A stretch of 44,240 nt of DNA from Escherichia phage NTEC3. Under the pieces are notes generated by a model. It was given only the letters and a program-made list of their open reading frames with translations. It did not search any database and was not told the DNA's origin. Positions 3,546-42,806 of this stretch are shown here, one piece after another; the first letter of the stretch is position 1, and every line of letters begins with the position of its first letter. The stretch lies in sequence record NC_073318.1; one strand, written 5' to 3'. The translations under genes and the position numbers were made by a program.

Positions 3546-3777
3546 GGGTAATCACCTCTGATTTCGTCTTGCCTTCGTTGTCAGCGGCGGCGGCCTTCGA
3601 TTCATCCTGCTGCTGCCGTTGTGTTTTCTTCGCTAACTCAGCCTGTGCTTTCTGCTGTTGCTGCGAAACGAGATTAGCCCGGCCTTCGTTCCATCCGCTG
3701 CGATACTGGTAGATGCCGTGTGCGTAAACCAGGATGATGAAACATGCTCCTGCTACGACAGTTGCTTTAAGATTCAT
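3391..3777 (-). CDS. i-spanin (Rz-like)
   Basis: N-terminal transmembrane segment, then Gln/Ala/Lys-rich coiled-coil-like region; overlaps the lipoprotein ORF; RBS AAAGGGGA before ATG. Confidence 0.55.
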   Translation of the reverse strand: MNLKATVVAGACFIILVYAHGIYQYRSGWNEGRANLVSQQQQKAQAELAKKTQRQQQDESKAAAADNEGKTKSEVITREVVKYIKTPGRSVCTFDPERVQLKSRAVANANSISGYDDDAAAVQAGATK

Positions 3778-4096
3778 GTTTCCCCTTTCTCGATAAGTAA
3801 AGCCCCGCCATAAAGCGGGGCGCTAGTCCTTATCATTTAAACATAGAAACGGCGTAATCTCAGTAAACCAGTTACTTTTTACACAAGCAATAGGGTATGG
3901 CCCTTCCGAACGCGTCAGCGTAACTACACTCAGGACTTACGTCCCGCTCCGTTACCTGCCCGCGCCGCGGTCGCTTGTTCATACTTCACAAGCTCAGGTG
4001 GAGCTTATCATATTTTTAGTGAAAAGTCAACTATTCGAATAGTTTATTCCAACATTTACAATTCGGAGGAATAACTGGAATACGTAAATAAATAGT

Positions 4097-4125
4097 TTGC
4101 ACACCCCAATATAATAGGGTACTAT
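4097..4125 (+). promoter_or_regulatory. class A sigma70-like promoter, TTGCAC-N17-TACTAT, with AATAG-GGTA-CTATT palindrome
   Basis: -35 at 4097-4102, -10 at 4120-4125; 32-bp element identical to the copy at 38905. Confidence 0.55.
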
Positions 4126-4152
4126 TCAGTTAACTTAAACAGGAGGTGAAAA

Positions 4153-4356
4153 ATGTATGCAATTTGCGAAGTAGTTCAAGAGTTCGATGAAGAGTTCGAC
4201 GGTGACTTGTGCCGGGTTAAAAAGGTTCTGCAGGTTTTCCCTGACGCAATGTCTGCTTACAAGGCATTAGATATATTTGAACCTGGAAGATACGGGGATT
4301 ATGACACTGTTCTGAGGGTTGTCCATGAGCAGGATTTAAACACAAGATTCCGTTGA
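4153..4356 (+). CDS. moron-encoded small acidic protein, unknown function
   Basis: 67 aa; strong RBS AGGAGGT 7 nt before ATG; own promoter upstream and terminator downstream; opposite strand to flanking head genes. Confidence 0.6.
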   Translation: MYAICEVVQEFDEEFDGDLCRVKKVLQVFPDAMSAYKALDIFEPGRYGDYDTVLRVVHEQDLNTRFR

Positions 4357-4361
4357 AAACT

Positions 4362-4388
4362 AAGGCCCCATAATGGGGCCTTTTATCA
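4362..4388. terminator. bidirectional intrinsic terminator
   Basis: Hairpin GGCCCC-ATAAT-GGGGCC followed by TTTTAT; on the minus strand followed by TTAGTTTT. Confidence 0.6.
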
Positions 4389-4847
4389 TTCTGGCTTAGT
4401 AACCTTCGCCGCTTTGCTTACCGCCTCTACTCCATCGGCATCAGTAACTTTAACGAAGTATTCGCCGACCGCATTAACCGTCAGAGACAGAGCCTCCTCA
4501 GGCGCATTCACCACTTCCTTACCGTCTTTGTACCAGGTCAGAGAATACGGCGCTTTGCCTGCCTTAACCTCGACAGTGATGGTTGCGCTGCCGCCCGCCA
4601 GTTCAGCGTCCTGCGGTTGCGCAGAGAAATACACGTCGCCAGCGTCCGCCAGATACGGAATTTCATAAAGCATACCGGCGGCGGGCAACGCAATACCGGT
4701 TTTATCTGCAAACGGCATATCATCTACCGGTGTACCGAGTACACTTTCGTCCTCAATAAATACCACGTTCTCGCCAGAGCCAGACACGCGGGCGTACTGG
4801 ACTACGCGACGAGACGGTACGTCAGTTACTTTGAAAAAGCCCATCAT
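4386..4847 (-). CDS. Ig-like domain protein (virion-associated candidate)
   Basis: 153 aa; C-terminal PYSLTWYKDGKEV...GEYFVKVTD Ig-like pattern; start overlaps stop of upstream gene at 4847. Confidence 0.5.
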   Translation of the reverse strand: MMGFFKVTDVPSRRVVQYARVSGSGENVVFIEDESVLGTPVDDMPFADKTGIALPAAGMLYEIPYLADAGDVYFSAQPQDAELAGGSATITVEVKAGKAPYSLTWYKDGKEVVNAPEEALSLTVNAVGEYFVKVTDADGVEAVSKAAKVTKPE

Positions 4848-5890
4848 TATTCCCCTTTCAGATAATCAGCAACACGTTTATCGAGTTCCGCCATCTGCTT
4901 AAGCGTGAGCGGATTCCCGAAACCATCTACAGATATTACGCGAAACTCTTCCGGCGATATACCGCTGTTACGGAAAATCTTACCTCGCACCGGGCCGAGC
5001 GCCTGGTCCTGAAACCATGCTGGTTGTTGTTTCAGGAACTCGTAATATGTTGTGTCCGCGCTTACCTGAGTGCCGCCGTCAGCGCCCTTAGCCGCCCGTT
5101 TTGCGCCTTTATCGAGGAAGTCGAACTCTGAACTGATTACCGGAGCCGTGCACGACCGACAATTCGGATGGGCTGGGGGTGTCGGCCCTTTACCGATTTC
5201 CCACGTCATTCCGTCTCTGGCCCTGCAAATAGCGCTGGTACGGCTATCCAGCGTAGACACCCATTCATATTTCTCGATGATGTCGTCGTTCTGGCGGTAT
5301 GTCTCGTTGCGGGCTTCGTTGGATACGTGAGACAGCGCGGTGCGTATTACTGTAGCTGCGTTACGTTCTGAGATGTCAGCCAGCCCGCCCGCGCCTACGA
5401 CATTCTTAACAATCTGCCGTGTTGTCTGGCCTTGTACAAAGCCCATCTTAACGCCGGTTACAAGACGTGCTACTTCCGTTTCACCCCAGCCGTCCATCAG
5501 CTTAGTGAAATCAACGGGCTTGTCACTCAACGATAATGGCTGAAACTCGGCAGCAGCCCACACCTGTTCAGCGGTAGGTGTAACAAATTCCGCGTCTACG
5601 TTGGCGGTCAGTGTCTTTACGTTCCACTCAGCCTCGTACGCCGCCAGTTCCTTAAGGTCGTCTGTCAGCTTTGTCTGCCAGTCGCCCGTAATCCCTGTCA
5701 GTGCTTCTTCAAGGTCCCGTAACAGTTTATTCAGCCGCGCAGTGCTTCGCCCGTCGTCGCCGAATAACAGCACCTGCCGTTTGATTTCATCCCGCATCTC
5801 CTGAATGAACGGTGTGAGGTCTTTCACCTCACCGGATGCGGTGCGTTGCAGCCATATCTGATGGCTGATGAGGGATGTAAGTAAGCTCAT
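4847..5890 (-). CDS. head morphogenesis protein, Mu F-like / SPP1 gp7-like family
   Basis: 347 aa; position right after portal; STLDSRTSAICRARDGMTW and HPNCRC motifs characteristic of this family. Confidence 0.65.
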   Translation of the reverse strand: MSLLTSLISHQIWLQRTASGEVKDLTPFIQEMRDEIKRQVLLFGDDGRSTARLNKLLRDLEEALTGITGDWQTKLTDDLKELAAYEAEWNVKTLTANVDAEFVTPTAEQVWAAAEFQPLSLSDKPVDFTKLMDGWGETEVARLVTGVKMGFVQGQTTRQIVKNVVGAGGLADISERNAATVIRTALSHVSNEARNETYRQNDDIIEKYEWVSTLDSRTSAICRARDGMTWEIGKGPTPPAHPNCRSCTAPVISSEFDFLDKGAKRAAKGADGGTQVSADTTYYEFLKQQPAWFQDQALGPVRGKIFRNSGISPEEFRVISVDGFGNPLTLKQMAELDKRVADYLKGE

Positions 5891-13390: not shown

Positions 13391-13646
13391 CTACTCTATC
13401 GTATGCATATTCGTCCGGTATTACGCCGTAACCCAGGTCGTTGTCCAGCTTAACTAACATATCGAGTATATCGTTGAGTTCGGCTTCGAGTTTCGCGTAG
13501 TCTTCGTAACTTACATAACGCCCTTCATGAGAGTCCGGAACAGGCGTTATATCTACCACGCCACTCGCGCAGTCTTCTGTTAAATCGTAGCGTATAACCA
13601 TCACTCCACCCCCTCCACATGTGTAACTGACCCGCAGTTCGCGCAC
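13350..13646 (-). CDS. tandem paralog family member C (acidic small protein)
   Basis: Likely true start MVIRYDL (internal); shares MVxRY N-terminus with the two upstream paralogs. Confidence 0.45.
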   Translation of the reverse strand: MRELRVSYTCGGGGVMVIRYDLTEDCASGVVDITPVPDSHEGRYVSYEDYAKLEAELNDILDMLVKLDNDLGYGVIPDEYAYDRVGEILEKYRNEPCN

Positions 13647-13690
13647 TCGACGTAATCAGGGTACTGGTCTTTGTATTTCTGTAGCTCGGC
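13601..13690. repeat. direct repeat copy 1 (about 90 bp) from tandem gene duplication
   Basis: About 90% identical to 13870-13959 (shared CACATGTGTAACTGACC...CAGTTCGCGCACTCGACGTAATC core). Confidence 0.7.
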
Positions 13691-13915
13691 GTTTACTTCT
13701 GCCAGTCTCGACACAAGCCCTTCTATTTCCTTGTCGGCGTCGGCTAGACGTTCCTGGTAATAGTCGTCCAGTTCCTTATAGCTGTCGTACTCTACATAAT
13801 CGCCGTATGCGTACTCAGCCATCTCAGGCTCTGGCAGGCCCCACGCTTTTACCTCATATCTCTGTACCATTACTCCACCCCTCCCACATGTGTAACTGAC
13901 CCACAGTTCGCGCAC
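13601..13915 (-). CDS. tandem paralog family member B (acidic, C-terminal CxxC)
   Basis: Likely start MVQRYEV; C-terminal ELQKYKDQYPDYVECANCGSVTHVEGVE nearly identical to paralog A. Confidence 0.5.
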   Translation of the reverse strand: MRELWVSYTCGRGGVMVQRYEVKAWGLPEPEMAEYAYGDYVEYDSYKELDDYYQERLADADKEIEGLVSRLAEVNAELQKYKDQYPDYVECANCGSVTHVEGVE

Positions 13916-13959
13916 TCGACGTAATCCGGGAACTGGTCCTTGTATTTCTGTAACTCGGC
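13870..13959. repeat. direct repeat copy 2
   Basis: Matches 13601-13690; encodes the conserved C-termini of paralogs A and B. Confidence 0.7.
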
Positions 13960-14145
13960 TTCAACTTCCAACAGCTTTAGGTCAAGATTCTGGTAGTCCT
14001 CAAACTTAACCCACTTCCCGTGGCGGTCAATGAAATGGTTGTCGGACCCATACTTAGAATATCTCTGTACCATGTTATTTCTCCTGTTTTCCAAGTCGCT
14101 TAGGTGAGCAGATAGCGCGTACCTCTGAATCGTTGGGCTTGTCAC
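13870..14145 (-). CDS. tandem paralog family member A (acidic, C-terminal CxxC)
   Basis: Contains MVQRY...ELQKYKDQFPDYVECANCGSVTHVGGVE. Confidence 0.5.
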   Translation of the reverse strand: MTSPTIQRYALSAHLSDLENRRNNMVQRYSKYGSDNHFIDRHGKWVKFEDYQNLDLKLLEVEAELQKYKDQFPDYVECANCGSVTHVGGVE

Positions 14146-16713: not shown

Positions 16714-16738
16714 TCCTCTGTCTCGTTCCGATAAGTGA

Positions 16739-20801: not shown

Positions 20802-21074
20802 ATGATTTACCAACTCTACCGAGGTATTGACCGACGGGATAACACAGAGGCGTTGTGGCTGTTGCGTGCGCCGTCCGGCGCGCACCAGATGGAAGAGATG
20901 GCCTACCTCGGCAAAGTACCGAAGCCGAAAGATATAGGCCGTCACCTGTCGCAGATTAAGCGCACGACATTCGTTAAAAGTGACTTTTATGTCTTCGAGT
21001 CGATGTATAGCTGGGCGATGCATTGTGACCACAAGACACGACATTTAATTGACCAGTGGGAGGTCAGGGTATGA
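20802..21074 (+). CDS. hypothetical protein
   Basis: 90 aa ORF with GAGGG RBS; overlaps next gene. Confidence 0.45.
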   Translation: MIYQLYRGIDRRDNTEALWLLRAPSGAHQMEEMAYLGKVPKPKDIGRHLSQIKRTTFVKSDFYVFESMYSWAMHCDHKTRHLIDQWEVRV

Positions 21075-22312
21075 TTTTAAAAGAACGCGGCGGCAATAAC
21101 GATGTGCACGCCCTGCTGTCGCCGTCAGGGGCTAAAAAGTGGCTAAGCTGCGCCGCATCGCTGGCCTGTGAGAAAGATATTCCCAACACGTCAGGTAAAG
21201 CCGCCGTTACAGGTACAGCGTGCCACACCATAGCGGAGGTCCATCTCAACGCCTATATCCGCGGAACTGCACTGCCGTTAGAGCGTGAAGTTGGCGCTTA
21301 CGTGCTGGACGAGGGTAAAGGCCAGATTAAGGCGCTAATCAGCCCGATGAAAGGTGCTGTACTGATTACGGCGGACATGATTGAGCAGGTGCGCAAGTAC
21401 ACCGACTACTGCAAAGCGATTATAGACGTAGCGACTTACGCCAAGCTGGAAATGCGTGTCAATCTTACTGAGGTATTGCATCCGGGGTATGAAGGCGTTG
21501 AGACGTTCGGAACCGCTGACCTCGTTGCTGTCCAGGAACTGGCAAACACCGACGAGCACATGCTCATTATCGGCGACATGAAAACCGGGCGGCATCGCGT
21601 CGAAGCGAAAGAAAACAAGCAGCTTATGCTTTACGCTCTCGGTGTTTATCGTCGACTCAAGAGACGTTATAACATAACAACCGTTCGTCTGGTCATCTTC
21701 CAGCCTTACGCTGGGGGCGCGACAGAGTGGGACATCTCGGTTGAAGGACTGGAACTGTTCGCTAAGTTCGCACAGAAACGCGCGCTGTTAGCGCTTGATG
21801 CGTATTTCCGTGGCAAGAAGAACCTGAAAGCGTCGGACTTCAAGCCATCGGTAGATGGTTGTCAGTGGTGCCGGTTCTCTGAACAATGCGCTGCGCGTAC
21901 AAAGACGGTTAATTCTGTACTGGCGGAAGAACTGGAAGACGACTTTGTGCTGGAACTGACGCCGGAGCAACTCGTAGCTGAGTATGAGAAGTTGCCGCTG
22001 TTGCGCCAGCACATCGACAAGGTTGAGAAAGCTATGGCGGCCGCGTTGCATTCAGGTAAGAAAGTTCCTGGTTACAAGTTGGTTGAAGGCCGCCCGGGTA
22101 ATCGTGCATGGAAAGACGCGGAGAAAGTAACAGAACTCTACGGCGACAAGCTGACTAAAGAAGTGCTCATGTCACCTACCGAAGCTGTTAAAGTCATACC
22201 GGAAGAAGAACTGAAAGACTTCATTACCCGTAAGCCAGGCGCACCATGTGTCGCAACGGCAGACGACAAACGTCCTGAGTGGAATCAGGTAACAGAGGAG
22301 GATTTGGAATGA
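21071..22312 (+). CDS. DUF2800-like PD-(D/E)xK (Cas4/RecB-like) nuclease
   Basis: ADLVAV ... IGDMKTG nuclease-like motifs and C-terminal Cys cluster CQWCRFSEQC; likely start ATG 21071 after GGGAGG; C-terminal VTEEDLE. Confidence 0.65.
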   Translation: MILKERGGNNDVHALLSPSGAKKWLSCAASLACEKDIPNTSGKAAVTGTACHTIAEVHLNAYIRGTALPLEREVGAYVLDEGKGQIKALISPMKGAVLITADMIEQVRKYTDYCKAIIDVATYAKLEMRVNLTEVLHPGYEGVETFGTADLVAVQELANTDEHMLIIGDMKTGRHRVEAKENKQLMLYALGVYRRLKRRYNITTVRLVIFQPYAGGATEWDISVEGLELFAKFAQKRALLALDAYFRGKKNLKASDFKPSVDGCQWCRFSEQCAARTKTVNSVLAEELEDDFVLELTPEQLVAEYEKLPLLRQHIDKVEKAMAAALHSGKKVPGYKLVEGRPGNRAWKDAEKVTELYGDKLTKEVLMSPTEAVKVIPEEELKDFITRKPGAPCVATADDKRPEWNQVTEEDLE

Positions 22313-22585: not shown

Positions 22586-23212
22586 ATGGGTATTAAACTG
22601 AATCTGCGTAAAGTAAACACTGCTTGGGTTAACGTATTTGAACGTGAAAAAGACCGTGAAAACGATGATGGCTCAATCACTAAAGGCCAGTACAGCGCGA
22701 CTATCATCCTGCCGTCTGACCATGCTCAAATCGATGCACTCTACGACACCGTTTACGCTGTAGTTGAAGAAGCGTTAGGCGCAGCCGCTGCCGAGAAATG
22801 GATGAAGTCCAACTACGGTGAAGGTAAGCACATGGATAAATGCGCGATTAAAGACATTGCCGAGCGCGACAATCCGTTTGAAGACTTCCCGGAAGGCTTC
22901 TACTTCAAAGCGAAGGCACAGAAACAGCCGCTGATTGTAACCTCTAAAAAAGGTGAGACTCAGGTAGAGCAGGACTTCAACGTAGACGGCGAACAGATTG
23001 AAGGTGAACAGGTTTACAGCGGATGCTTAGCTAACGTAAGCGTTGAAATCTGGTTCAGCCAGAAATACAAAGTCCTCGGCGTTAACCTGCTGGCGATTAA
23101 ATACGTTGGCGAAGGCAAAGCGTTCGGCGGTTCTAAAGTCGCTGCGAGCGTCAATGACCTGGAAGACGACGAAGAAGATGAAGCACCGCGCCGCGAACGT
23201 CGCCGCCGCTAA
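22586..23212 (+). CDS. DUF2815-like protein (ssDNA-binding candidate)
   Basis: 208 aa; sits between DUF2800-like nuclease and DNA polymerase as in the known DUF2800-DUF2815-PolA phage module; acidic/basic C-terminus. Confidence 0.55.
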   Translation: MGIKLNLRKVNTAWVNVFEREKDRENDDGSITKGQYSATIILPSDHAQIDALYDTVYAVVEEALGAAAAEKWMKSNYGEGKHMDKCAIKDIAERDNPFEDFPEGFYFKAKAQKQPLIVTSKKGETQVEQDFNVDGEQIEGEQVYSGCLANVSVEIWFSQKYKVLGVNLLAIKYVGEGKAFGGSKVAASVNDLEDDEEDEAPRRERRRR

Positions 23213-28519: not shown

Positions 28520-28653
28520 ACATCATAGCCCCGATTCCAGCATTGCAAAAACGTATCAAGGAACTCGAAGAGGAGGTTCTACGCCTACGGCAACAGAGAG
28601 ATGCCGCTAATGCGCAACTGGCGTTTGTGCTGGAGAAGTTATCAGAAGAGTAG
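28516..28653 (+). CDS. small coiled-coil peptide (45 aa)
   Basis: Hand-found; ATGA overlap with SNF2 stop; followed by terminator. Confidence 0.3.
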   Translation: MNIIAPIPALQKRIKELEEEVLRLRQQRDAANAQLAFVLEKLSEE

Positions 28654-28654
28654 A

Positions 28655-28684
28655 GAAAAGGCCCCGTTTGGGGCCTTAGTTTTA
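28655..28684. terminator. bidirectional terminator between replication module and tailspike gene
   Basis: AAGGCCCC-GTTT-GGGGCCTT hairpin; T-runs on both strands. Confidence 0.6.
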
Positions 28685-38904: not shown

Positions 38905-38933
38905 TTGCACACCCCAATATAATAGGGTACTAT
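38905..38933 (+). promoter_or_regulatory. class A promoter driving the tail-module accessory operon
   Basis: -35 TTGCAC 38905-38910, 17 nt spacer, -10 TACTAT 38928-38933; identical 32-mer to 4097-4128. Confidence 0.55.
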
Positions 38934-38961
38934 TCACCAGTAACTTACTGAGGGTATAATT

Positions 38962-39288
38962 ATGCGTAAATTAGTATTAGCTCTGGGGTTTATGTCTTTT
39001 GCTACTTTTGGAGCCCCGTGCGAACAGGTATTTAGTGAATCCGTTCTTATGACTTCTGGTGTGCTTGATAAAGCCGACCTTACTATTGTAAAGGCATTTA
39101 AAGACTCTACAGTTCGCGAGTGTGAGGCTGCCGTAGTGGTTGGTAAATCGGGCCTGCCTCCGCAAGCCGTAACATACTCGGTAATACGTTCTGTAGAGAA
39201 AAACGGAGACGCGTTTTACAGCCTACTGACAGCCACCCGCCTGCAAATGGTGATGACCGGGTGGGCGATAGGCGCGGAAAGTAAATAG
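38962..39288 (+). CDS. secreted small protein (signal peptide), accessory operon gene 1
   Basis: 108 aa; N-terminal MRKLVLALGFMSFATFGA signal peptide; GAGGG RBS; class A promoter 30 nt upstream. Confidence 0.55.
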   Translation: MRKLVLALGFMSFATFGAPCEQVFSESVLMTSGVLDKADLTIVKAFKDSTVRECEAAVVVGKSGLPPQAVTYSVIRSVEKNGDAFYSLLTATRLQMVMTGWAIGAESK

Positions 39289-39353
39289 TCGCCTTTATTT
39301 AAAGGAATGCACTGTGGTTAAATAGGACAAATCCTAAACACGAGGAAGTAAGC

Positions 39354-40484
39354 ATGGCCCGGAAGAAAATAACCGACGAACAGTTGCAGGAAGAATTGAA
39401 CGCCGGGATGAAGAATATCGATATCGCCCGTAAATACGGAATCTCAGACCGCGTTATTCGTATCCGTAAAGCGAAGCTGGCTAAGAAAGGTGTAGGCCAC
39501 GGGCGTGACGTTAGCCACCTTGTCCCAGACGGCTACAAGATTAAAGGGACGTCGTCCCTGGTGGACGAGTTCGGCAACACTAAGTTGCAATGGGTTAAGA
39601 CCGACGCTGATGCCGAACGTCAGGTTGAATTGATGAAAGCCGTAATAGAGGGCATGAAGTCAGAGATTACGCCCGTTGCGCCTGTTAAACCGGCACGAGC
39701 CAAACGTGACGATAAACTACTCAATCTTTACACGGTATCTGATTTCCATCTCGGTATGCTGGCATGGGCCGATGAGAGCGGCGACGACTGGGACATGAAG
39801 ATTGCAGAAGACCTGTTCTCTCGGTGGTTCGACGCGGCGTTTCAGAAAGCACCGGATGCAGGAACAGGAGTTATTAACCTGCTTGGCGACCTTGCACACT
39901 TCGATAGTCTGGACGCCGTTACCCCGGCAAGTGGTCATGTTCTCGATGCGGACACGCGCTACCAGAAACTGGTTCGCTACATGATTCGTATGGTCCGCCG
40001 TGTTGTCGATATGGCCCTTGTTAAGCATAAAAATGTTCGCTTGCTTATCGTACAAGGGAACCACGACGAAAGCGGAATGATTTGGTTAGCTGAGATGTTC
40101 AGTACGCTGTACGACAATGAGCCTCGTGTGTTCGTCGATACGTCGCCGGATGTTTACAAGATGGTGCAACACGGCAAAACGACGCTGTTCTTTACACACG
40201 GGCATAAATGCCGGTTTGAGGTGGTCGAACCCATTATGATAGCTAAGTTCAGAAAAGCATTTGGCGAAAGCGAGTACAGTTACGCACATGTCGGTCATCT
40301 CCACCATCAAAAGATTGTAGAAAGTAGGAATATGGTAGTGGAACAACATCGCACTCTCGCGGCGAAAGATGCATATGCTTCCCGCGGTGGGTGGATGTCT
40401 AAGAGGTCCGCTAATGTCATAACCTATAGTTCAGAGTTCGGGGAAGTAGGTAGGCTTTCGATCTCACCGGAGATGCTAAGATGA
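39354..40484 (+). CDS. HTH domain fused to calcineurin-like / SbcD-Mre11-like metallophosphoesterase
   Basis: N-terminal HTH (NIDIARKYGISDRVIRIRK); phosphoesterase motifs SDFHLG, GDLAHFD, QGNHDE, THGH, VGHLHH in canonical order. Confidence 0.65.
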   Translation: MARKKITDEQLQEELNAGMKNIDIARKYGISDRVIRIRKAKLAKKGVGHGRDVSHLVPDGYKIKGTSSLVDEFGNTKLQWVKTDADAERQVELMKAVIEGMKSEITPVAPVKPARAKRDDKLLNLYTVSDFHLGMLAWADESGDDWDMKIAEDLFSRWFDAAFQKAPDAGTGVINLLGDLAHFDSLDAVTPASGHVLDADTRYQKLVRYMIRMVRRVVDMALVKHKNVRLLIVQGNHDESGMIWLAEMFSTLYDNEPRVFVDTSPDVYKMVQHGKTTLFFTHGHKCRFEVVEPIMIAKFRKAFGESEYSYAHVGHLHHQKIVESRNMVVEQHRTLAAKDAYASRGGWMSKRSANVITYSSEFGEVGRLSISPEMLR

Positions 40485-40951
40485 AGTACCTTGATGTTTC
40501 AAAACAATTTAAATACTGCCCTGATACTGGGCAGGTTACCAGGATATCTACTGGTGCTGAGGTTGGTACGGTTGGTGTAAGAGGCTATCTGTGCTGCGGT
40601 ATGGGTGGCAAAACAGTGTATGTCCACCGCATAGCATGGTGTCTTTATAATAAATGTGACTTAGACAGGAAAACTCAAATAGACCACATAAACCATAACA
40701 GGCTAGACAATAGAATAGAAAATCTACGCGCCACCGACAATACAGGGAACAGTAAAAATAAAACTATGAGAAAGATAAATAAATCCGGGGCTACAGGTGT
40801 AAGTTTCCACAAAGCCGCGGGTAAGTGGCGCGCGTTTATAAAAGTTAACTACAAACAAGTGCATTTAGGGCTTTACGACGATTTTGATGTAGCGGTTGCC
40901 GCGCGTAAAGCCGCCGAGAGTAAATACGGTTTCCATGAAAACCATGAGTAG
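40481..40951 (+). CDS. HNH homing endonuclease with AP2-like domain (paralog of 14275-14748)
   Basis: IDHINHNRLDNRIENLRATDN HNH motif; GVSFHKAAGKWRAFIKVNYKQVHLGLYDD AP2-like segment; ATGA overlap with upstream gene. Confidence 0.75.
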   Translation: MKYLDVSKQFKYCPDTGQVTRISTGAEVGTVGVRGYLCCGMGGKTVYVHRIAWCLYNKCDLDRKTQIDHINHNRLDNRIENLRATDNTGNSKNKTMRKINKSGATGVSFHKAAGKWRAFIKVNYKQVHLGLYDDFDVAVAARKAAESKYGFHENHE

Positions 40952-40964
40952 GGGAGATTGATTT

Positions 40965-41195
40965 ATGACTTCAAAATACAACCGCACAATGACAAATACT
41001 CACGGCAGCACTATGACAGTAGACGTTTATGATGTGCTCCGCGCCTTCGATATACGCGACCCGGCGCTACAGCACGCATTGAAGAAGCTATTGTGCATGG
41101 GCTTGCGCGGACACAAGGACACCGGAACCGACTTAGCGGAAGCAATTGAAAGTCTGGAGAAGTTACGGGAATACCGAAGCAATATTGATGAGTAA
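40965..41195 (+). CDS. hypothetical protein, last gene of accessory operon
   Basis: 76 aa ORF, 14 nt after HNH gene, followed by terminator. Confidence 0.45.
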   Translation: MTSKYNRTMTNTHGSTMTVDVYDVLRAFDIRDPALQHALKKLLCMGLRGHKDTGTDLAEAIESLEKLREYRSNIDE

Positions 41196-41226
41196 GAAAA
41201 AGGCCCCGAAAGGGGCCTTAGTTTTA
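41196..41226. terminator. bidirectional terminator between accessory operon and major tail gene
   Basis: AAGGCCCC-GAAA-GGGGCCTT hairpin; plus strand followed by AGTTTTA, minus strand by TTTTTCTTA. Confidence 0.6.
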
Positions 41227-42396
41227 TGCGTAGGTGATACGTTGAATTACGATAGACGACTGGTACTGGTTGCCGGTGGCCTGCCCCTCAATGGACTGAG
41301 TGATTGACTCAGGTCCGCCAATCTCTGGGGTAACTGCCGTAAGCTCCGCACGTTTCAGGCTGAAAGACATAGCCCCGTTTACCCCCGCCAGAATAGAGTT
41401 AATCTCTACCTGCTGCTCGTTGATAAACTTCTGAATCATCGCCATGTCATACAGCTTGCCGGAGATGGAGAAGGTGTTAGCCGCGCGGCTACGTTCCACA
41501 AACGCAACGTTAGAGTTGCCGAGTTCGAACTGTGCGGACGCGCTGTTGTCGTTGGTGATGGTAAGGCTATCACAACGCAACGGCGTAGAGCCATCGAACA
41601 CGGAAACGTCAACCGAAGAGAATGGCTCATCACCAAAAGTAATAGATGAGAAGTTGGAACCGGTCGGCGGCGTAGTGAGAATCTCCTGACTGCGACCGAT
41701 GAATGGGAAGCTGCCGGTTACCATAGCGTTAACTGCCTGCTCAATAGTGAAACCAGAAACTTCCACGCCTTTGGTTAGTGTGTATGCGTCAGTCCCGCCG
41801 CACTGTCCTTTGTACCAGGTGAGAATAGAGAACGTCTTACATGTGTTACCGGTTTCCAGCGTGTCGCCAGTTTTAGCCTTACTAGTTTTTGTCTCGGTGG
41901 TCAGGGTGTGTTGGATGCCTGCACCAGTAACAACGGTAGCCGTTACTGCGGTAACAATAAATGGTTTTGCGTTATCGCCTGTTAAGTCGGTAAACGCAAT
42001 CAGGTCGCCTACCCCAACTCCGTCAGTGATAAAACTGCCGGTAGCGCGTGTGAACGTCTTGCCCGCGGGCGCGACGGTGATCGATAGTCCTGGCAGAGAA
42101 ACACCGGATTGCCACGTAGAGCCTAAAGCACCTGCCAACCAGTCATCCTGGCTTTTAGAGCTAAGCTCAATTGCGTATTCACCGCTAACCTGTTTGTTAC
42201 CGGTGCGGATGGATGTAGTTTCACGGCTGCCGTCGAGTTCGTTGGAGGTCAGTGTGTCACGGGTAATGGCAGGAACACCGCCCGTGTTACGTAATGGTGA
42301 CCAGACCGGGTTAGTCGGTGTTACACCCGGGGTCACTTCCGCCACATAGAATTGCGCGGTATTCGCGCCCTTAAAAGGAGTTGTAGCCATATTCAC
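41224..42396 (-). CDS. major tail protein (candidate)
   Basis: 390 aa Thr/Gly/Ser-rich ORF upstream (in transcription order) of G/GT and tape measure. Confidence 0.5.
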   Translation of the reverse strand: MNMATTPFKGANTAQFYVAEVTPGVTPTNPVWSPLRNTGGVPAITRDTLTSNELDGSRETTSIRTGNKQVSGEYAIELSSKSQDDWLAGALGSTWQSGVSLPGLSITVAPAGKTFTRATGSFITDGVGVGDLIAFTDLTGDNAKPFIVTAVTATVVTGAGIQHTLTTETKTSKAKTGDTLETGNTCKTFSILTWYKGQCGGTDAYTLTKGVEVSGFTIEQAVNAMVTGSFPFIGRSQEILTTPPTGSNFSSITFGDEPFSSVDVSVFDGSTPLRCDSLTITNDNSASAQFELGNSNVAFVERSRAANTFSISGKLYDMAMIQKFINEQQVEINSILAGVNGAMSFSLKRAELTAVTPEIGGPESITQSIEGQATGNQYQSSIVIQRITYA

Positions 42397-42806
42397 AGCC
42401 TCTTGGTGAATGCTATAAAGTTAATTGACAATGGCCGTTTGGCCCATCCGTTTTCTACAATCAGCGGCCCCAGGCTAACCGATTGAACCTCGGCGCAGAT
42501 GTCGTTACGCGAAAATGACTTACCTGCTTTAAACGCCGTGTTAAGTAAGTCTGCCATTTTATTGATTGGCGCGCTACCTTTCACCGATGCGTAGTTAATG
42601 TCTACCTGATAAATACCAGAGCGTTGCTCAGTGAAGAACAAATCCGCCTGCTCGGTATCTGCCAGTAGCATGTAACTCGCCAGATACGGCGTATCGGTTG
42701 ACGTCGGCGCGTCGATGTTTTCAAGCGCAACCTTGATGCCGTTGGCGGTTCCGAAGGCTACCAGCGGAACATCGAACGCTTTTGTTAAGTCCTCAAAGTA
42801 GCCCAT
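42393..42806 (-). CDS. head-tail connector / tail terminator candidate
   Basis: 137 aa; overlaps both neighbours (coupled). Confidence 0.4.
   Translation of the reverse strand: MGYFEDLTKAFDVPLVAFGTANGIKVALENIDAPTSTDTPYLASYMLLADTEQADLFFTEQRSGIYQVDINYASVKGSAPINKMADLLNTAFKAGKSFSRNDICAEVQSVSLGPLIVENGWAKRPLSINFIAFTKRL

Follow-up and report, generated by a model that had tools for sequence, protein, structure and literature searches.

A widespread helix-turn-helix metallophosphoesterase of Escherichia phage NTEC3 and its possible role as a phage nuclease

Architecture and Catalytic Site

The window analyzed here is a 44,240-nucleotide stretch of DNA from Escherichia phage NTEC3 (NC_073318.1), in which a cassette of four + strand genes (38962-41195) is set between tail genes of the - strand. 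One of the four encodes a protein with an N-terminal helix-turn-helix (HTH) fused, through a family-specific linker, to an apparently active metallophosphoesterase (MPE) core, as judged from its sequence, and this protein may be a nuclease. In GenBank ON548432.1 (vB_EcoS_SCS92; Guernseyvirinae, Kagunavirus) the product is labeled 'calcineurin-like phosphoesterase superfamily domain protein'.

An earlier note, made from the letters of this DNA, had listed five phosphoesterase motifs in the protein. All five were found at the implied positions and in the order that characterizes the superfamily (DxH, GD, GNH[D/E], H, GHxH), and together they supply the seven metal ligands. In an alignment of 49 homologues, which are 33-51% identical to the query protein, residues D130, H132, D179, N236, H237, H282 and H317 are invariant, and conservation reaches at least 90% at H315, H182, D184, D198 and D238. 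Since the ligand residues are invariant or nearly so, the motifs represent a selected active site and not chance matches, and the invariance of the catalytic residues indicates that enzyme activity is under selection. The conserved H182 lies at the D+3 position of motif II (GDLAH), and His52 of P. furiosus Mre11 has the same spacing in GDLFH. The Pfam matches proved real as well, although they score under the gathering cut-offs (Metallophos_2, 25.2 bits against 27; Metallophos, 19.5 against 21.5). The protein is a divergent branch of the calcineurin-like superfamily that is recognized by its motifs and fold and not by a curated Pfam threshold.

The HTH that the earlier note placed at residues 1-45 is borne out by three helices in the AlphaFold model (8-16, 21-28 and 32-44) and by Pfam matches within the family. 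The window protein itself has a weak GerE match (residues 14-45, E 0.012), and family members match Sigma70_r4_2 best (1.5e-9), then GerE (2.4e-8), and also HTH_8 and HTH_23; the family profile matched the GerE structure 1fse with an E of 0.038. Most members carry the HTH and some are without it altogether. Its recognition helix is conserved between the window phage (SCS92), Jerseyvirus, Dhillonvirus and T1. As the genera that have this helix in common differ in their promoters and operators, the suggestion of a sequence-directed nuclease finds no support here. The linker that follows contains a beta-hairpin with the conserved residues G74, W80 and K82.

Structural Neighborhood

An AlphaFold2 model built from the 49-sequence alignment (mean predicted local distance difference test score 90.7) consists of the HTH, the linker, the conserved hairpin with its helix, and an MPE core (119-376) of the beta-sandwich MPE fold. 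In a Foldseek comparison with the PDB the class III cyclic nucleoside monophosphate (cNMP) phosphodiesterase Rv0805 came marginally first (E 1.4e-7), followed by DP1 and Mre11, and GpdQ, YfcE and LpxH also ranked high. The viral structural neighbors carry the automatic labels 'DNA polymerase II small subunit' or 'SbcD'. When the family profile was run against all PDB sequences the sole MPE entries to surface were nucleases, namely a PdeM-type 'Nuclease MPE', SbcD and Mre11, all of them sub-threshold (E 0.3-1.5 overall, 0.36-1.5 for SbcD and Mre11), and an NCBIfam scan gave no SbcD/Mre11 match. In the model, therefore, the fold leans towards the nuclease branch without settling the substrate.

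The likeness to each of these enzymes is partial. In SbcD and Mre11 chains of 319-379 residues only 184-190 residues align structurally with the window protein, to which the N-terminal HTH and the hairpin-helix element are extra. A Rad50/SbcC-type ATPase was found neither among the 72 annotated genes nor by a Pfam scan of the replication-module proteins, in agreement with the earlier note, which saw no SbcC-like partner. PolD DP1, a 3'-5' proofreading exonuclease, needs the DP2 catalytic subunit, which is absent in the window phage, whose polymerase is of family A; DP1 also has an OB fold before its phosphodiesterase domain, where the window protein has the HTH, hairpin and helix and no OB fold was identified. 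The T1-like phages have no annotated polymerase. With the class III cNMP phosphodiesterases (Rv0805, CpdA) and with GpdQ the protein has its MPE core in common. A lambda-type PPP Ser/Thr phosphatase, which the earlier note had named as the alternative that would undo its reading, is excluded by the fold: the motifs GDxHG, GDxVDRG and GNHE and a nearest PPP fold were not found, and a DNA-binding-type HTH is present.

A Widespread Phage Family

The window protein matches PHROG 704 'DNA repair exonuclease' over its full length (E 5.8e-166; residues 4-375 on profile positions 2-389 of 390). Phage T1 carries a member of the same family, ST16/gp16, with the same HTH, hairpin and MPE architecture, to which the window protein is 45% identical overall; taken by region, the figure is 49% for the HTH and 47% for the MPE domain. 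By these comparisons it is a member of the PHROG 704 / T1 gp16 (ST16) family, with nothing essential differing. Homologues were found by tblastn in 2062 phage records, nearly full-length in 1957 of them, and by phmmer over 1.84 billion cluster representatives in 4694 clusters (50% identity) at E ≤0.001. They occur in Guernseyvirinae, Dhillonvirus, Drexlerviridae, Klebsiella phages (which we take to be Webervirus) and phages of Vibrio, Rhodobacter, Roseobacter and Campylobacter.

Within the Guernseyvirinae, 413 records hold the region, compared with 396 that have the terminase at ≥80% identity, and because of these counts the gene can be regarded as effectively core in that subfamily. Among the Drexlerviridae it likewise counts as persistent, with 508 of 522 phages carrying it (PMC13164509). 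The architecture, which the earlier note did not recognize as a characterized one, is thus common, and the gene is a further member of a very large, routinely annotated phage family known by transferred labels. A Kagunavirus genome paper, for example, names the orthologue 'exonuclease subunit SbcD' on domain matches alone (PMC7203180).

The Drexlerviridae, Guernseyvirinae and Dhillonvirus are abundant groups of virulent enterobacterial siphoviruses in which few non-structural genes are as close to universal as this one, and many of these siphoviruses are candidates for phage therapy and biocontrol. In annotation, the label 'DNA repair exonuclease / SbcD' goes beyond what is known, and an adjoining HNH gene is not to be taken as a partner.

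Genetic Context of the Gene

The features of the locus are listed in Table 1. The promoter region of the cassette (38905-38936) is identical at 32 of 32 positions to 4097-4128, and each of these twins drives a small + strand island (38962-41195 and 4153-4356) amid late structural operons of the - strand. The same promoter closely resembles those of the leftward operons of small open reading frames (ORFs). We preferred it to a tool-predicted promoter at 38933-38960, of which the -10 element falls between the ribosome-binding site and the start codon.

Table 1. Features of the HTH-MPE gene, its cassette and related loci (window positions unless stated otherwise).
Feature	Position	Strand	Details
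HTH-metallophosphoesterase gene	39354..40484	+	376 amino acids plus stop; ORF call, GenBank, Pfam, PHROG, model
HTH, three-helix, LuxR/GerE / sigma-70 region 4 / Fis type	39354..39488	+	residues 1-45
Linker, conserved beta-hairpin 61-85 and helix 87-104	39489..39707	+	residues 46-118; family-specific
MPE core	39708..40481	+	residues 119-376
MPE motif I SDFHLG	39738-39755	+	residues 129-134
MPE motif II GDLAHFD	39885-39905	+	residues 178-184
MPE motif III GNHDE	40056-40070	+	residues 235-239
MPE motif IV HGH	40197-40205	+	residues 282-284
MPE motif V GHLHH	40293-40307	+	residues 314-318
Segment VTPASGHVLDAD, specific to the HTH-MPE family		+	residues 189-200; within MPE core
Sigma70-like promoter TTGCAC-17 nt-TACTAT	38905-38933 (region 38905..38936)	+	drives cassette; repeated copy elsewhere
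Palindrome AATAGGGTACTATT	38921-38934		within cassette promoter
Palindrome AATAG-N4-CTATT, 14-nt sites	4113, 15546, 16738, 20208, 22508, 26068, 38921		
First cassette gene, 108 amino acids	38962..39288	+	hydrophobic signal-peptide-like N-terminus; PHROG 14165, no function assigned
Free-standing HNH_3 + AP2 homing endonuclease	40481..40951	+	Pfam HNH_3 4.7e-10; PHROG 99
76-amino-acid ORF, native downstream neighbor of MPE gene	40965..41195	+	ATGA overlap in HNH-less relatives
Bidirectional GC-rich hairpin terminator	41200..41219	.	closes + cassette and convergent tail-tube gene
HNH downstream of HTH-MPE gene, T1	42028-42510 (fetched T1 locus)		
HNH downstream of HTH-MPE gene, Vibrio phage 98E28-2	6241-6750 (fetched locus)		
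HNH downstream of HTH-MPE gene, Jerseyvirus KE04	4671-5171 (fetched locus)		

The palindrome AATAG-N4-CTATT occurs at seven sites in the window where 0.10 would be expected, each time in a promoter-like context over a sigma70-like -10 region. The cassette promoter, its twin at 4097-4128 and the promoters of the leftward small-ORF operons all carry it, as do those that drive the operons for helicase, nuclease, polymerase and methylase, and the site at 16738 is common to two divergent promoters. Two promoter classes can be distinguished, TTGCACACCCCAATAT-palindrome-CA and TTGACAnnTG-palindrome-ATAGTT. The palindrome looks like a putative operator for a dimeric regulator, and from the promoter sequence we infer that the cassette belongs to an early/DNA-metabolism regulon. 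Upstream of the cassette the palindrome is kept in Bas71 and Jerseyvirus KE04. T1 does not have it, nor do the loci examined, in part, from Dhillonvirus, Hanrivervirus and phages of Vibrio and Rhodobacter. Since the recognition helix of the HTH is conserved across genera and the palindrome is missing from these loci outside the Guernseyvirinae, the latter is unlikely to be the general target of the HTH and was rejected as such.

Among the other genes of the cassette, the first has same-position counterparts in some relatives that are labeled, by annotation only, 'superinfection immunity protein'. The 76-amino-acid ORF matches the C-terminal part of PHROG 2452 (2.4e-36) and likewise that of longer families (17613 'ATPase', 13223 and others), and is present in 772 phage records across many hosts. 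It was rejected as a conserved partner of the MPE gene, being unrelated to the small ORF that takes its place in Dhillonvirus, and as a relative of DUF3310 (hhalign probability 0.8%); the 'ATPase' label in one relative is a transferred name on a protein of 87 amino acids. The terminator that closes the cassette has a near-copy at 28645-28684, and both stand where + and - strand transcription converge. Because the + strand cassette interrupts the - strand tail operon, the downstream tail chaperone and tape-measure genes would need antisense read-through or another promoter.

The HNH gene overlaps the stop codon of the MPE gene as ATGA, as the earlier note had seen, and on this overlap a partnership between the two had been suggested. 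The overlap is real, but the link between the two genes is incidental. In Bas71 and most relatives there is no HNH gene, and the MPE stop overlaps, again as ATGA, directly with the 76-amino-acid ORF; alignment to Bas71 with mapped junctions places the HNH gene and a short spacer as an insertion exactly between these two genes. Of 413 related records, no more than 8 match the 2.5-kb region around the HNH gene over at least 80% of its length. The closest match of this HNH, at 44% identity, is the other HNH of the same genome (14275-14748). Three further, distantly related phages (T1, a Jerseyvirus and a Vibrio phage) have unrelated HNH genes just downstream of their MPE gene. Because of these clean junctions, the sporadic presence and the unrelated copies at the same spot, the HNH gene is a selfish element inserted at a boundary between conserved genes and not a functional partner, and homing seems to have taken place repeatedly at the 3' boundary of the HTH-MPE gene.

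The MPE gene itself is a mosaic. Compared with Bas71 (3555-4685 of the fetched locus), nucleotide identity is 91-99% over the first ~520 nucleotides and 57-86% over the rest. Against the Dhillonvirus 'rolling', protein identity amounts to 83% in the MPE domain and only ~50-56% in the HTH and linker, and against Jerseyvirus KE04 this pattern is the opposite. These alignments point to recombination inside the gene. Co-conversion associated with homing of the HNH gene would give a diverged 3' half and is possibly its source.

The neighborhood was surveyed more widely in 80 viral contigs with relatives at 47-95% identity. With a threshold of 70% MPE identity these loci form 19 lineages, which are not wholly independent of one another, and their ORFs were called by a crude procedure. 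No partner gene is conserved across the 19 lineages, nor did the annotated clusters include a recurrent neighbor of the SbcC/Rad50 type. Within three ORFs of the MPE gene a PNKP-type HAD phosphatase was found in five lineages, a P-loop deoxynucleoside monophosphate (dNMP) kinase in four and DUF3310 in four, the last being counted because PHROGs labels DUF3310-containing proteins 'nucleotide kinase'. Combined, nucleotide-pool genes lie within this distance in 10 of 19 lineages, and all such genes in the ±8 kb windows fall inside it. In the Drexlerviridae, kinases often come right after the HTH-MPE gene (PMC13164509). The link of the MPE gene with nucleotide-pool enzymes is suggestive.

Proposed Role in DNA Degradation

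The nearest functional precedent is A1 of phage T5, which we keep as a functional analogue and a distant relative only. T5 A1 is a predicted metallophosphatase that is necessary and sufficient for host DNA degradation and is reported to interact with RNA polymerase (bioRxiv 10.64898/2026.04.02.716235). Both it and the window protein would be phage-encoded stand-alone MPEs with Mre11/DP1-like structural neighbors, and both carry GNHD-x3-S-x-WL, HGH, GHxH and a C-terminal ITY segment. Both genes have early-type promoters and links to the nucleotide pool, through dmp in T5 and through the HAD phosphatase and dNMP kinase for HTH-MPE. T5 A1 differs in its length (556 amino acids), in its unrelated N-terminal half and in having its DNA-binding partner, A2, as a separate protein.

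With a confidence that falls somewhat short of even, we propose that the window protein is an early, DNA-tethered, Mn-dependent nuclease that works independently of a Rad50-type ATPase and feeds mononucleotides to phage salvage. In favor of this we count the conserved metal ligands, the nucleases among the sub-threshold profile matches, the histidine at D+3 of motif II, the HTH, the labels of the viral structural neighbors, the promoter type, the nucleotide-pool genes nearby, the precedent of T5 A1 and the core status of the gene. The gene would be transcribed alongside the early and DNA-metabolism genes of the phage, and its product would be a binuclear-metal (probably Mn2+) phosphodiesterase of the Mre11/SbcD/DP1 structural neighborhood, without the Rad50/SbcC ATPase. 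The HTH, probably aided by the conserved hairpin-helix element, would keep the enzyme on DNA, where the MPE site could then cleave phosphodiester bonds. It may act on the host chromosome or on intermediates of replication and recombination. Most likely the DNA would be reduced to mononucleotides that neighboring phage kinases and phosphatases recycle into phage DNA, and the protein would in that role correspond functionally to T5 A1. That the gene is early, that the substrate is DNA, that the enzyme is a nuclease and that it takes part in salvage are all things that we infer.

A bolder form of this proposal, which we consider rather unlikely, is that the HTH-MPE family constitutes the long-sought DNase that breaks down the host chromosome in T1-like, Jersey-like and Dhillon-like siphoviruses. 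In one polypeptide it would match T5 A1 (plus A2): held on DNA by its sigma-region-4-like HTH, it would degrade that DNA, pass the dNMPs to adjacent kinases and possibly shut off early transcription. The family may then correspond to the unmapped T1 function for host DNA breakdown, the loss of which is presumably the classical 'gene 2.5' phenotype.

Several observations weigh against a nuclease of this kind. Firstly, no PDB sequence was matched significantly by the single sequence or by the family profile, and neither in the PDB sequences nor in NCBIfam was there a significant match to any nuclease family. Secondly, the C-terminal capping domain of Mre11/SbcD is missing, as the model ends at residue 376 inside the MPE sheets. 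The relation to T5 A1 is also remote: hhalign gave 19% for the single sequence and 61% for family against family (E 8e-5), the latter over 137 columns of the C-terminal half only, and membership of the T5 A1 family was rejected, since T5 A1 matches PHROG 1745 only and the window protein does not. The early timing is read from promoter sequence, and the salvage model would also require some way of sparing phage DNA. The full-text literature yielded in silico labels and no experimental characterization of any family member, and to this extent the earlier note was right to call the architecture uncharacterized. Lastly, the kinase and HAD neighborhood suits an enzyme acting on free nucleotides equally well, and such an enzyme has a precedent in the bacterial defense module Calcineurin-CE + HAD, which hydrolyzes dNTPs (dATP to dAMP).

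Such an enzyme is the strongest of the alternatives, if an unlikely one. As a phosphodiesterase or phosphohydrolase it could destroy the cyclic nucleotides of immune signaling, in an anti-defense role, or it could reshape (d)NTP/(d)NDP pools together with the HAD phosphatase and kinases, and the HTH would serve localization or regulation. The top Foldseek position of Rv0805 and the high ranks of GpdQ, YfcE and LpxH favor it, as do the HAD phosphatase and dNMP kinases that adjoin the gene in many lineages. In the Guernseyvirinae, moreover, the gene lies in a small, accessory-looking island together with a gene of the superinfection-immunity type, to which some phages add Ant. It is difficult, however, to see why a small-molecule enzyme should have a conserved DNA-binding HTH. 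For the anti-defense variant in particular, there was no PADLOC match and no match to known anti-defense families, and near-universal core status in several virulent phage groups would be unusual, since anti-defense genes are normally patchy.

It seems less probable still that the protein is a lone Mre11-like nuclease that processes ends or structures in replication, recombination or packaging (removal of hairpins or flaps, concatemers) and is no bulk degrader of host DNA. The nearest nuclease-type structures, Mre11, SbcD and DP1, are indeed end-processing or proofreading exonucleases. The same promoter family drives the PD-(D/E)XK/DUF2800 nuclease, the Enc34-type single-stranded DNA-binding protein, helicases and Pol I, and in Dhillonvirus the gene stands just upstream of the small terminase subunit. 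Against this, a Rad50-like clamp and a capping domain are both lacking, the gene does not keep company with a recombinase or terminase gene across lineages, and its recurrent neighbors are nucleotide-pool enzymes and not recombination genes.

That the protein is primarily a transcription factor, with an HTH that switches between phage gene classes by binding RNA polymerase or promoter DNA and an MPE module that is regulatory or secondary, is very doubtful, because its catalytic residues are invariant, some family members have no HTH, the recognition helix is conserved across genera yet the palindrome is missing from T1 and the other loci examined outside the Guernseyvirinae, and a terminator stands between the gene and the lysis genes of T1. 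What speaks for it are the N-terminal matches to Sigma70_r4_2, GerE and Fis-type HTHs and a weak match of the window protein to a 'late transcriptional activator' PHROG (E 9e-4), the position of the gene, which in Drexlerviridae immediately precedes the lysis cassette and in Dhillonvirus, a Rhodobacter phage and a Vibrio phage adjoins genes for lysis or terminase, the seven promoters with an operator-like palindrome that lacks an assigned regulator, and the parallel of T5 A1, which degrades DNA and also damps pre-early promoters, with its reported interaction with RNA polymerase.

If the protein dismantles host DNA, as in the nuclease proposal, or otherwise reshapes the nucleotide pool, this would account for how these phages obtain nucleotides and for the poor transduction by some of them, and it would identify the source of the nucleotide danger signals that some defense systems sense.

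Other Features of the Genome

The replication module of the window (21071-22312 and 22586-23212) encodes a DUF2800/PD-(D/E)XK nuclease and an Enc34-type single-stranded DNA-binding protein; with this nuclease present, the phage would already have a separate recombination-type nuclease besides the MPE. The leftward small-ORF region contains a direct repeat of 103 nucleotides (13597-13699 and 13866-13968), the two copies of which are 89% identical and lie 269 nucleotides apart.

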